DNA from: Candidatus Hermodarchaeum yapensis
GTDB lineage: Archaea; Asgardarchaeota; Hermodarchaeia; Hermodarchaeales; Hermodarchaeaceae
Assembly: GCA_016840405.1 (NCBI GenBank)
Contig: JAEOSK010000055.1
Location: forward strand, 1 to 11,412
Length of the DNA: 11,412 nt
Reading direction: 5' to 3'
In this document: positions 1,863-7,166 of the stretch, piece by piece
Position numbering within the stretch: position 1 is the first letter of the stretch
How the letters are laid out: each line of letters starts with the position of its first letter
Program-made: the position numbers and the translations under genes
Notes under the pieces: model-generated
What the model saw: only the letters and a program-made list of their open reading frames with translations
Told to the model about the DNA's origin: nothing
Databases searched by the model: none

Positions 1863-3053
1863 ATGTGTGCTGAATTTTTCAACAAAATTACAGCGACTGT
1901 GAGAACCCATGAGCATTGGCGAAGTAAGTGCCTAAATTTGATTCCATCTGAAAATCTTACTAGCCCACAAGTTCGAGCTCTGTTGGGATCCGATTTCGGT
2001 CACCGGTATGCTTGGGATGAGCCCTGGTACGGAGGACAAAAATACTCAATTCAAATCGAAAAATTTGCGGTCGAAGCAGCGAAGCAGCTCTTTGATGCAA
2101 AATATGCGAATGTTCGGCCACTTTCTGGGCACCTCTCGTTGATGTCAGTGATTATGGGTTTATGCCAACCAAATGACCCTATCCTGATTTCGCATTTCAA
2201 AAATGGTGGCTACCCTTTAAATCTCCAGGCGCGGTTTCCCCTCGATGTCCATTACATCCCCTACCAAGTGGATCAGTACACAATGGATGTAGCCAAAACA
2301 CGTGAGCTTATCGAAAACGCTAGTCCAAAGTTAGTTATTCTTGGAGCCAGCATTTTCTTGCAGCCTCACCCAGTGAAGGAATTAGCTAAAACTGCACAGG
2401 ATGCTGGGGCTGTACTGGTTTTTGATGGATCCCATGTTTTAGGTCTCATTGCGGGTAAACAATTTCAGAACCCCTTCAAGGAGGGGGCTCAAATCCTTCT
2501 GGGAAGCACACACAAGACTTTCTTTGGACCACAAGGTGGCATTGTGCTTGTAAAAGATGATATGGAAGTGGCAGAACAAATTGATTTGACGCTGCGACCG
2601 AATCCAGTTTTAGTTGATAATTACCATTTGAATCGTGTGGCAGCGCTAGCCCTCTCTTTAGCAGAGTTGCTCGCTTTTGGAGAGGATTATGCAAAACAAG
2701 TCCTCACTAATGCGAAAGAGTTAGCTCAGGTTCTGCACAAGAATGGTATTTCGGTTACTGGTGATAAATGGGGTTTCACTTCTTCTCACCAAGTTCTGCT
2801 AAAAACAGCCAGCTTTGAGGAAGGAATTCAAATGCGTGATCAGCTAGAAAAAGCGGACATTATTGTAGATGCAGGTGTGCGGTTAGGAGCTCAAGAGGTT
2901 ACCAGACGGGGAATGAAACAGGGTGAAATGCAAGAGATTGCAAGATTAATCACGCAGGTGCTTAAAGAAGAAGAGAAGCCAGAGAAGGTCAAACAGGCTG
3001 TTCACTCTCTTGTTCAACAGTTTGAATCGGTTCAATATGTCTTTGAGAACTGA
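1863..3053 (+). CDS. glyA: Serine hydroxymethyltransferase-family PLP-dependent enzyme (archaeal type, divergent)
   Basis: Motifs LNLIPSEN, SDFGHRY, ANVRPLSG, DGSHVLGLIAG, GSTHKTFFGPQGG (PLP lysine at 2514-2516) and GVRLG..EVTRRG. The family is secure, but the exact activity is uncertain (see findings). Confidence 0.85.
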   Translation: MCAEFFNKITATVRTHEHWRSKCLNLIPSENLTSPQVRALLGSDFGHRYAWDEPWYGGQKYSIQIEKFAVEAAKQLFDAKYANVRPLSGHLSLMSVIMGLCQPNDPILISHFKNGGYPLNLQARFPLDVHYIPYQVDQYTMDVAKTRELIENASPKLVILGASIFLQPHPVKELAKTAQDAGAVLVFDGSHVLGLIAGKQFQNPFKEGAQILLGSTHKTFFGPQGGIVLVKDDMEVAEQIDLTLRPNPVLVDNYHLNRVAALALSLAELLAFGEDYAKQVLTNAKELAQVLHKNGISVTGDKWGFTSSHQVLLKTASFEEGIQMRDQLEKADIIVDAGVRLGAQEVTRRGMKQGEMQEIARLITQVLKEEEKPEKVKQAVHSLVQQFESVQYVFEN

Positions 3054-5466: not shown

Positions 5467-6381
5467 TTGGTTGATTCCCAGAAGATTATGTCTTTGAAGC
5501 AGATGGTTCAACAGTTCATTCCAGATAAGTGTCAGATATATTTGGAGGGGCTACTCGTCAATCGTCTGCCTATGGCCACAGTTCATGAAATTATTCGTGC
5601 AAAGAGAACAGGATTGCGAATAGTGAGCGCGCCGAATGGTTTAGCTGTGGATCAGCTTATTGGTGCCGGCATGGTAGCTGAAATTGAGTTCTATTTCCTT
5701 GGCTTCATGACGGAGAAAGGCTTTGCTTCAATGCGGAGATTCCGGTCTGCTGCAGAGAACGGAACTGTGCAAATTAAAGAGAGCATGGGTTATGCCATTT
5801 GTATGGGATTACGTGCGGGAGCCTTTGGAATCCCATTTATTCCCCTTCCTGATTTTCGCGGATCAGATCTGCTAACCATTCGAGAAGACTACCAAGTCAT
5901 GTCATCCCCTTACAACCCTAAAGAAACAGTAATCACGGTTCCCGCATTACGACCGGATGCCCTCATCCTTCATGCGCATTCAGCAGATCAACGGGGTAAC
6001 GTCGTTCTCGATGAGCCTTGGTCTAGTTTCACCTTGACGACAGCGCAAGCCTGCAATCGCGTCTTGGTTACGGTTGAAGAGCTTGTAGAAGAAGGTTCAA
6101 TGCAACCAAATCAGATTACTATCCCCCACTTCCTTGTTGATGCTGTCGCACACACACCGTACGGTGCAGCCCCAACGGCTTTGAACCATCGCTATGAGAT
6201 TGATGCAAGTCACATTGAGTTATATCAAGATGCAGCAAAAACTAAGGAAGGGTTTGATCGGTATCTGGAGGAATACATCCTCAGTTGCAGTAATCATGAA
6301 GAATTCATTGAGAAAGTGGGTCTCCCACCTTCCTGGGTGAAGAAAGCACCAACCCAAAAGACGAAGGAGGAGACCAAATGA
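5467..6381 (+). CDS. Family I CoA-transferase-fold subunit A (GctA/AibA-like); start is TTG 5467 or ATG 5488
   Basis: Motifs R.PMA.VHEIIR, LRAGAFGIPF.P, ALRPD.LILHA..AD.RGN, VTVEE and P.GA.PT. Its stop overlaps the next start (ATGA, 6378-6381). Confidence 0.88.
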   Translation: MVDSQKIMSLKQMVQQFIPDKCQIYLEGLLVNRLPMATVHEIIRAKRTGLRIVSAPNGLAVDQLIGAGMVAEIEFYFLGFMTEKGFASMRRFRSAAENGTVQIKESMGYAICMGLRAGAFGIPFIPLPDFRGSDLLTIREDYQVMSSPYNPKETVITVPALRPDALILHAHSADQRGNVVLDEPWSSFTLTTAQACNRVLVTVEELVEEGSMQPNQITIPHFLVDAVAHTPYGAAPTALNHRYEIDASHIELYQDAAKTKEGFDRYLEEYILSCSNHEEFIEKVGLPPSWVKKAPTQKTKEETK

Positions 6382-7166
6382 CAGACTTTTCCACTGATTT
6401 CACATATGATGAACTGATACTCACAACTCTAGCTCGTCAACTTCAGGATGGCGATCGTGTATTCACAGGAGTTGCTAGCCCCATCCAAATGATGGCAGTG
6501 TTCCTTGCCAAAGCCACTCATGCCCCCAACTTGTTATACTTCACCATACTGGGAACAATAAATCCGCATCCTGAAAAACTACCCTTCTCAACTGGAAATC
6601 CCCATCTCTTTGACAACTGTGAAAACGCCATTACTTTTCCAGAAATCTTTGACCTAGCCAACACGGGTCGGATGAATGTAGCATTTCTTGGTGGTACACA
6701 AATTGACCAGTATGGCAACCTTAACATGAGCATTATTGGGAAAGATTACAACCGTCCAAAAGTACGATTGCCTGGTGGAGCAGGTGGTCCGATAATGATT
6801 CGAAGTTTTCAAAGAATTATCGCTTGGCGCCCAAATCATAGTGTGAAAAATCTGGTTGTCCAAGTCCCGTTTGTCACTAGCCCAGGCTGGATTCCAGAAG
6901 CTAAAGGAACCCGAAACGGAGGACCTGATACTATCATCACCAATCTGTGTGTCTTCAAATTCAACCGACAGGAGGAAAGTATCCAACTAGCATCAATACA
7001 TCCAGGTTCGAGTATTGAACTAATCAAGGATCAAACAGGATTCCCGTTCAAAATTCCTCGAAAAATCACAACAACTGCATCTCCTACAACGCGTGAAAAA
7101 GAGGTTATTACCAAGCTTGTTGACCCAGAAGGAATTCGTAAATTGCTTCTTCAACCACCACAATAA
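6378..7166 (+). CDS. Family I CoA-transferase-fold subunit B (GctB/AibB-like)
   Basis: Motifs FTGVASP, A.ATHAPNL, FLGGTQIDQYGNLN, RLPGGAG, FVTSPG, IITNLCVF, SIHPG and TGF. Translationally coupled to subunit A. Confidence 0.88.
   Translation: MTDFSTDFTYDELILTTLARQLQDGDRVFTGVASPIQMMAVFLAKATHAPNLLYFTILGTINPHPEKLPFSTGNPHLFDNCENAITFPEIFDLANTGRMNVAFLGGTQIDQYGNLNMSIIGKDYNRPKVRLPGGAGGPIMIRSFQRIIAWRPNHSVKNLVVQVPFVTSPGWIPEAKGTRNGGPDTIITNLCVFKFNRQEESIQLASIHPGSSIELIKDQTGFPFKIPRKITTTASPTTREKEVITKLVDPEGIRKLLLQPPQ

Follow-up and report, generated by a model that had tools for sequence, protein, structure and literature searches.

The locus described here raises the question what reaction, if any, is carried out by a CoA-transferase-type gene pair that has lost the glutamate (Glu) of its active site. 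The pair lies on contig JAEOSK010000055.1 of Candidatus Hermodarchaeum yapensis, in a stretch of 11,412 nt (the window, to which all coordinates refer unless a contig is named), and encodes an alpha subunit (P0001) of the GctA/AibA/IpdA type and a beta subunit (P0002) of the GctB/AibB type without the catalytic Glu. The pair is a conserved, uncharacterised Glu-less lineage with different candidate catalytic residues. Its nearest characterised relative is AibA/AibB, the 3-methylglutaconyl-CoA decarboxylase of Myxococcus xanthus (PDB 5MZW-5N03), as supported by sequence, fold and phylogenetic tree, with moderate tree support.

The two genes (Table 1) are translationally coupled. They overlap in ATGA, and a GGAGGAG Shine-Dalgarno-like motif is located 6-12 nt 5' of the beta ATG. 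The TTG start codon of alpha is preceded, at a distance of 10-14 nt, by a GAGGT motif, and the 7-residue N-terminal extension of alpha is common to its relatives. Both subunits matched PF01144 (CoA_trans) above the curated cut-off (E 1.5e-21 for alpha, 3.8e-14 for beta) and both scored far below every NCBIfam equivalog cut-off. AlphaFold models were obtained with pLDDT values of 91.9 (alpha) and 83.6 (beta). Among close homologues 75 alpha positions are invariant and 113 beta positions are invariant or nearly so. We read alpha and beta, which on grounds of homology should pair, as the subunits of one enzyme in the glutaconate-CoA-transferase branch of the family I CoA-transferases.

In family I CoA-transferases a Glu of the beta subunit forms a covalent enzyme-CoA thioester. 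The preliminary description of the window, made by reading the DNA, had placed an isoleucine at this position, and the alignments bear this out. The beta subunit reads ATHAPNLLYFTILG around Ile57, a residue that aligns with Cys56 of AibB (HMMER, chains of 5MZW-5N03) and with the Glu of 'IIYEGG' in P0123, the canonical paralogue of the same genome (MAFFT). Among 115 full-length homologues this position is occupied by Ile (105), Leu (7), Val (2) or Asn (1), and never by Glu. The catalytic residue of GctB of Acidaminococcus fermentans glutaconate CoA-transferase is Glu54 (PMC5380842). Since the beta Glu is absent, the ping-pong route via an enzyme-CoA thioester is unavailable, and it is very unlikely that the pair is a canonical ping-pong CoA transferase. 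The transferase role is, moreover, already covered by a canonical Glu-bearing GctAB pair elsewhere in the genome (contig C5). The beta paralogues are 34 % identical; where GctB has Glu54 and the paralogue 'YEGG' the pair has Ile, and the GTG--L and PGSGG of canonical transferases contrast with TGVASP and PGGAGG in the pair. The family I glycine-rich loop that holds the thioester oxygen is nevertheless kept. It reads PGGAGG in beta and PGVAGA in AibB, and G134, A135 and G136 are invariant or nearly so. The backbone NH of Gly134 of AibB points to the thioester/enolate oxygen (PMC7756340). Cys56 of AibB is the residue altered in the PDB 5N00-5N03 variants, and the Cys56Val, Ala, Ser and Asn variants stay active in vitro (PMC7756340), so that a branched aliphatic residue at this site is compatible with decarboxylation.

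Sequence searches against the entire PDB returned AibA (5MZW_A, E 3e-34) as best match for alpha and AibB (E 2.7e-37 to 1.9e-36) as best match for beta, followed by GctAB of A. fermentans (E 3.4e-32 for alpha, 4.5e-27 for beta) and, third, by IpdAB (E about 1e-18 for alpha, 2e-14 for beta). Superposition on the AibAB structures had been proposed in the preliminary description. Foldseek ranked AibB first for the beta model (TM 0.79/0.85, 33-34 % identity), and for the alpha model it ranked GctA first by E-value (TM 0.86), with AibA giving the highest target-normalised TM, 0.92. The motifs quoted in the preliminary description are all present and align with their AibA/AibB counterparts: TGVASP, ATHAP and FPEIFDLANTGR of beta with TGVASP, ATHAP and IPDLFDHARRGR of AibB, and SAPNGL and KESMGY of alpha with SLPNPL and REHDGY of AibA. 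Characterisation of Glu-less enzymes with the CoA-transferase fold is, to our knowledge, limited to AibAB and the ring-cleaving hydrolase IpdAB. The pair shares with AibA/AibB the two-subunit GctAB fold, the absent beta Glu, the signatures TGVASP, ATHAP and (I/F)PxxFD in beta and S-x-P-N and E-x-x-G-Y in alpha, and Gly134 of the loop. It differs by Ile for Cys56, Thr for Glu72, an extra Glu27 in alpha and its archaeal host; furthermore, alpha (304 aa) retains the GctA-length C-terminal helices that are missing from AibA (265 aa). With GctAB (PDB 1POI) it has the fold and the subunit sizes in common, and the alpha superposition is the best one by E-value. In blastp, beta is 34 % identical both to an AibB-like protein (152 bits) and to the canonical paralogue (150 bits). 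On such sequence comparisons the pair is best assigned to a distinct subfamily, and orthology with AibAB was rejected. Of the earlier interpretation as 'AibA/AibB-like', the archaeal host and AibAB as nearest characterised relative are supported. The proposed decarboxylase activity and link to HMG-CoA/mevalonate metabolism did not gain support: identity is 33-34 %, Cys56 and Glu72 are replaced and the aib gene context is absent from the window.

The relationship may extend to the substrate pocket. Sheng and Himo give, in their supplement, the 19 residues that line the AibAB pocket (PMC7756340). The chain A residues Phe27, Met28, Leu53, Pro54, Asn55 and Phe75 (PMC7756340) correspond in HMMER alignments to alpha Leu29, Leu30, Ala55, Pro56, Asn57 and Phe77. 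The chain B residues Gly30, Ala32, Ser33, Cys56, Ser71, Glu72, Ile86, Leu89, Phe90, Val132, Gly134, Ala135 and Leu138 (PMC7756340) correspond, in the same order, to beta Gly31, Ala33, Ser34, Ile57, Ser71, Thr72, Phe87, Ile90, Phe91, Gly134, Gly136, Gly137 and Met140. Nine of the 19 are identical, 8 are conservative or small replacements and 2 are changed; small or hydrophobic residues make up most of the non-identical ones. The control, the canonical paralogue encoded by this genome, matches 5 of the 19. Thr72 stands in the column of AibB Glu72, the proposed ultimate proton source, and the S-T of which it is part is conserved among beta homologues. An AibB-like representative from a TetR-alpha-beta locus likewise lacks Glu72.

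In the alpha subunit, Pro56-Asn57 align with the pocket residues Pro54-Asn55 of AibA, and this P-N motif is restricted to the clade of the pair, the AibA-like group and Atabeyarchaeia. Glu105 of KESMGY is the equivalent of AibA Glu103; it is conserved in AibA and invariant in all Glu-less relatives examined. A further acid, Glu27 (in YLEGLL), is specific to the clade. Alignment of 44 close Asgard homologues showed 41 Glu and 1 Asp in the 42 sequences covering this column, where AibA, an AibA-like representative, the canonical paralogue, Atabeyarchaeia and the bacterial clade discussed below have Gly and IpdA has Ala. In the AlphaFold model strand 1 spans residues 23-26 and Glu27 comes immediately after it, with the first of the pocket residues Leu29 and Leu30 two positions further on; the Pro56-Asn57 and Glu105/Gly108 loops leave the same C-terminal sheet edge. 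Judged from this model, Glu27 may reach the active site and may be a relocated catalytic carboxylate. Further clade-specific invariants, His76, Asp79 and Cys81 of beta, are found in a model loop of low confidence (residues 64-86, pLDDT 61-68).

Glu27 bears directly on the statement in the preliminary description that the pair is not a CoA transferase. The beta nucleophile is indeed gone, and this part stood; the alpha subunit has, however, a candidate carboxylate of its own. Another Glu in the active site had been named as an observation that would speak against the decarboxylase reading, and the clade-invariant Glu27, so near to the pocket residues, leaves that objection in force. It could be argued that the pair transfers CoA after all, the nucleophilic carboxylate having shifted from beta to alpha Glu27. 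The invariance of this residue within the clade, the Gly or Ala elsewhere and its place beside pocket residues all favour this, and IpdAB offers a precedent for an alpha Glu as catalytic residue in this fold (6COJ, E105A). Yet the atabeyarchaeal and bacterial relatives with the same beta Ile have Gly at alpha 27, and the genome already holds a canonical transferase pair. We know of no family I transferase with its nucleophile at the position of alpha Glu27, and consider such a shift quite unlikely.

IpdAB, the hydrolase that cleaves the ring of COCHEA-CoA in Rhodococcus and Mycobacterium (PDB 6CO6, 6CON), shares the GctAB fold and the absence of the beta Glu; it attacks a bound CoA ester, and no CoA is transferred. 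The pair might accordingly be imagined as a hydrolase of one of two kinds: one that, like IpdAB, cleaves a C-C bond of a beta-keto acyl-CoA in a retro-Claisen reaction, or a thioesterase for acyl-CoA. Beta-oxidation and ring-opening genes are abundant in the genome, and the title of PDB 9CQ2 describes an active-site mutant of CtfAB as a 'hydrolase'. The catalytic residue of IpdA is not retained, however. Glu105 of IpdA was located by comparing 6CO6 with 6COJ (titled E105A), which differ solely in MDEG -> MDAG, and its column is occupied by Gly108 in alpha, in agreement with the earlier remark that alpha appears to lack this Glu. IpdAB is also more distant in sequence than AibAB, and genes of steroid ring degradation (EchA20, IpdC, FadA6) were not found in the window or at syntenic loci. 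A thioesterase beside a CoA ligase, the arrangement seen in bacterial relatives, would amount to a futile cycle. A hydrolase of either kind has therefore, in our estimate, only a slim chance.

An exhaustive HMMER search with alpha gave 977 cluster representatives at E <= 1e-10, which form a very diverse superfamily. A small group with an alpha x-P-N-P-L motif includes P0264, whose locus (alpha-beta-MDR-HMG-CoA synthase) is an aib operon, and two further members of this group have TetR genes upstream. In the free maximum-likelihood alpha tree the Asgard clade is joined with Atabeyarchaeia (SH-aLRT 99), separate from the AibA group. When the Asgard and AibA clades were forced together, the log-likelihood came out 17.9 above that of the free tree (p-AU 0.906), though the AibA group was defined after the motif had been seen, which makes this less than a clean test; a joint clade is allowed and mildly favoured by the data. 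The beta tree has the AibB-like protein (Cys at the site, TetR-alpha-beta locus, long branch) together with the Ile clade on one side (SH-aLRT 92) and the Glu-bearing transferases with several other Glu-less Asgard lineages on the other.

A phylum survey covered 301 Asgard genomes (300 sampled and the window's own). It detected close orthologues (>=63 % identity) nowhere but in the GTDB family of the window, where 18 of 18 genomes from two genera have them. Another family, which matches Atabeyarchaeia, has proteins of ~45 % identity (3 of 3 genomes), and all that was seen in the other families were canonical paralogues or Glu-less ones of other kinds, with as many as eight matches in a genome. 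The submitters' names (Thor-, Hod-, Odin-, Hermod- and Promethearchaeota) had suggested a wide spread of the pair over the Asgard archaea; this was rejected, close orthologues being confined to one GTDB family. Among contigs from one genome per species, 479 stretches encode a relative; the best 80 of these 479 comprise ~19 Asgard loci, 2 loci of Archaeoglobi and for the rest bacteria, chiefly Chloroflexota. The related clade is present in about 460 bacterial species. This bacterial 'N-I-T-G' clade (Chloroflexota, Bacillota, Nitrospinota and others) and Atabeyarchaeia have beta subunits 39-45 % identical to that of the pair (39-43 % for the bacterial Ile clade in blastp) with the same Ile, S-T and PGGAG motifs, and the atabeyarchaeal alpha also has P-N and Gly108. 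The bacterial alpha differs in having KTAGAY, KEHACY (with an invariant Cys108) and Gly27.

This invariant Cys lies in the IpdA Glu105 column (loci L057-L110, e.g. L106:7425-10723), and the bacterial Ile clade is a separate uncharacterised enzyme family, present in the cultured Ktedonosporobacter rubrisoli, Gracilibacillus alcaliphilus and Maledivibacter halophilus. In addition, at least five more GctB-like lineages without the catalytic Glu were observed in other Asgard families, with IYGMW, LYFLG, HYIMGNTF, IYGGYW or FSALG at the Glu region (loci L119, L123, L128-L133 and L137; genomes G047, G070, G251, G040, G038, G258, G296, G107 and G170). These lineages have G(V/I)A(S/T)P and not the GTG--L of Glu-bearing transferases.

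Conservation also bears on the suggestion that the pair is a catalytically dead binder of CoA or acyl-CoA, for example a sensor or scaffold. The loss of the nucleophile and the conserved position amid the non-metabolic CorA and RpoH genes might be explained in this way. Both subunits are, however, kept and translationally coupled, the pair is present in all 18 genomes of the family, and the pocket and Gly-loop residues of both subunits are strongly conserved; we hold a dead binder to be very improbable.

Gene context was compared across the relatives. In the Asgard family the order is conserved: an SHMT-like gene, a coiled-coil/HTH protein, CorA, alpha-beta and then RpoH with its own TATA-like element. 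A metabolic partner gene was not found at this syntenic locus. The SHMT-like protein, since it scores below the NCBIfam cut-off, is a divergent GlyA homologue, syntenic with the pair. The closest outgroups (P0052, P0191) are located on short contigs with uninformative context. In Atabeyarchaeia the Glu-less pair, a 147-aa ORF, IorA, IorB and DUF362 follow each other on one strand (loci L005/L052/L053, about 9100-15300), with a Zn-ADH (MDR) gene just downstream on the opposite strand; this string looks like an operon joining the pair to a 2-oxoacid:ferredoxin oxidoreductase. Among 61 non-Asgard loci, an orthologous (59-69 % identical) AMP-forming acyl-CoA ligase of the PRK08162 type adjoins the pair in 22, and a GNAT-fused ligase in 4 more. 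Both Archaeoglobi loci have a divergent ADP-forming acyl-CoA synthetase, and two Bacillota loci a CoA-disulfide reductase immediately upstream of the pair. The neighbours of the relatives make or handle CoA esters, as would be expected beside an enzyme that uses up a CoA ester and does not form it by transfer.

Table 1 Features of the alpha-beta pair, of the window and of the remaining genome
Feature	Position	Strand	Basis or remark
Alpha subunit (P0001), GctA/AibA/IpdA-type, 304 aa	5467-6381	+	TTG start, ORF translation
Alpha Glu27 (YLEGLL), clade-specific acid, C-terminal end of strand 1	5545-5547	+	
Alpha Pro56-Asn57, equivalent to AibA pocket Pro54-Asn55	5632-5637	+	alignment
Alpha Glu105-Ser-Met-Gly108 (KESMGY); Glu105 = AibA Glu103, Gly108 = IpdA Glu105 column	5779-5790	+	
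GGAGGAG Shine-Dalgarno-like motif and ATGA stop/start overlap coupling alpha and beta	6366-6381	+	direct sequence reading
Beta subunit (P0002), GctB/AibB-type without catalytic Glu, 262 aa	6378-7166	+	
Beta Ile57, codon ATA, catalytic-Glu column	6546-6548	+	alignments to AibB and canonical paralogue P0123
Beta Thr72, AibB Glu72 column (proposed ultimate proton source)	6591-6593	+	HMMER alignment
Beta PGGAGG loop, residues 132-137, equivalent to AibB PGVAGA	6771-6788	+	alignment
SHMT-like gene	1863-3053	+	313 against NCBIfam serine hydroxymethyltransferase cut-off of 335 bits
RNA polymerase subunit H/Rpb5 gene, long, 189 aa	7262-7831	+	
TnpB-family RNA-guided endonuclease gene, contig end	330-1388	-	NF040570 161.7 bits; OrfB_IS605 and Cas12f1-like TNB domains
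Benzoyl-CoA dearomatisation-like cluster	contig C65:13282-32076 (L030)		
MmdA/12S-type gene split over two contig ends, then 5S (PycB/OadA-like)	C6:9420-10850 and C42:1-2721		

The contexts of the relatives are heterogeneous and point to generic acyl-CoA turnover (AMP ligase, ADP-forming synthetase, IorAB with DUF362, CoA-disulfide reductase). The pair could on this ground catalyse other enolate chemistry on a CoA ester, be it as a double-bond isomerase, an epimerase, a hydratase or a lyase; its substrate might be an aryl- or branched acyl-CoA delivered by 2-oxoacid:ferredoxin oxidoreductases or ligases. The several other Glu-less GctB-like Asgard lineages suggest that the scaffold was recruited for many reactions, which agrees with such a role. 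We know of no precedent for an isomerase, epimerase, hydratase or lyase of this kind in the CoA-transferase fold, and the pocket is closer to that of AibAB than to that of the canonical paralogue; other enolate chemistry has in our judgement a small though real chance.

The metabolic background was examined in the window's genome, which is 86 % complete. It encodes HMG-CoA synthase, seven crotonase hits and seven acyl-CoA dehydrogenases, as well as a Bcr/Dch/Had/Oah-like dearomatisation cluster and a second dehydratase-type cluster. The former, on contig C65, contains two BcrAD-type ATPases, two HGD-D/BcrBC-type subunits, Dch-like and Oah/BadI-like crotonases and a Had-like MDR, next to an aldehyde:ferredoxin oxidoreductase and a large NADH-dependent Fe-S flavoprotein. 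OAD_beta, the beta subunit of the Na+-pumping glutaconyl-CoA decarboxylase, was not found in the 86 %-complete genome. The only carboxyltransferase encoded is of the MmdA/12S type, followed by a 5S subunit, which suggests a system of the methylmalonyl-CoA:pyruvate transcarboxylase type rather than a Na+-pumping decarboxylase. The pair may replace the latter; a decarboxylating glutaryl-CoA dehydrogenase among the seven acyl-CoA dehydrogenases is a possible alternative. The Hermodarchaeota genome paper assigned glutaconyl-CoA decarboxylation to GcdA and does not mention the CoA-transferases in its main text. A gap in leucine biosynthesis, considered as a rationale for isovaleryl-CoA formation, was dropped; the genome encodes one large subunit of the aconitase family and a synthase of the HMGL/HCS-like type.

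The pair keeps the CoA-binding fold together with the Gly loop and the hydrophobic pocket, its closest affinity is to AibAB and the beta Glu is absent; non-covalent, thioester-assisted enolate chemistry is therefore the best reading. The pair would bind an acyl-CoA non-covalently, and the thioester would stabilise an enolate or dienolate, as in AibA/AibB and IpdAB. A glutaconyl-type (vinylogous beta-carboxy) acyl-CoA might then be decarboxylated without a cofactor, and the dienolate protonated by water or by a clade-specific residue, with alpha Glu27 and beta His76, Asp79 and Cys81 as candidates. We infer, tentatively, that the pair is a decarboxylase of a glutaconyl-type ester; of the reactions considered we rank this one first, as plausible while falling short of probable. 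By analogy with AibAB the substrate might be 3-methylglutaconyl-CoA itself, which seems distinctly improbable. 

Several observations weigh against a decarboxylase. The pair is as distant from AibAB-type proteins as from the Glu-bearing paralogue (33-34 % identity), the AibB-like branch is long and the deep nodes of the tree are weak. Both changed pocket residues are the proposed proton donors of AibB, Cys56 (Ile57) and Glu72 (Thr72), and alpha Glu27 could serve as nucleophile or base in quite different chemistry. The window has no aibR, aibC, mvaS or TetR neighbour, unlike a true AibA locus; the earlier observation that aibC- and liuC-type neighbours are absent from the window was borne out. 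The search of the genome for LiuC/AibC homologues, proposed at the same time, yielded nothing identifiable, and the MDR beside one of the crotonases was best matched by the dearomatisation Had model. Of the seven crotonases 6 were scanned, and none reached a curated NCBIfam equivalog cut-off, so that no methylglutaconyl-CoA hydratase was identified. A link to the benzoyl-CoA pathway as a source of glutaconyl-CoA was rejected as specific support, since the two do not co-occur: the C65-type cluster occurs in 10 of the 18 family genomes and also in families without the pair. Finally, the bacterial alpha pocket differs (KTAGAY, Cys108), and what was concluded from the bacterial gene context may not be transferable to the Asgard pair. 

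A literature search found no paper on an archaeal enzyme of the AibAB type. The decarboxylase reading in its fullest form would make the pair the first archaeal cofactor-free acyl-CoA decarboxylase with a CoA-transferase fold, acting on glutaconyl-CoA or a related carboxy-enoyl-CoA in an anaerobe in whose genome OAD_beta was not found, with the acid relocated to alpha Glu27 as a third independent solution after Cys56/Glu72 of AibB and Glu105 of IpdA. In this complete form it appears unlikely.

Two other genes of the window deserve mention in their own right. In the long RpoH the Rpb5 C-terminal domain is fused to a restriction-endonuclease-like domain (Mrr_cat) at the N-terminus. Its gene stands alone downstream of the metabolic genes and is preceded, at about 60 nt, by a TTTATAA element; gene calls in relatives are of a long (184-187 aa) or a short (87 aa) form. 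The TnpB-family gene is not accompanied by a TnpA gene in the window.

For the pair and its relatives the public labels 'glutaconate CoA-transferase' and 'CoA-transferase subunit' are almost certainly wrong, and such labels would distort metabolic reconstructions of Asgard archaea and Chloroflexota. Knowledge of the substrate would extend anaerobic acyl-CoA metabolism by one reaction and would show how the CoA-transferase scaffold has been re-used for enolate chemistry.

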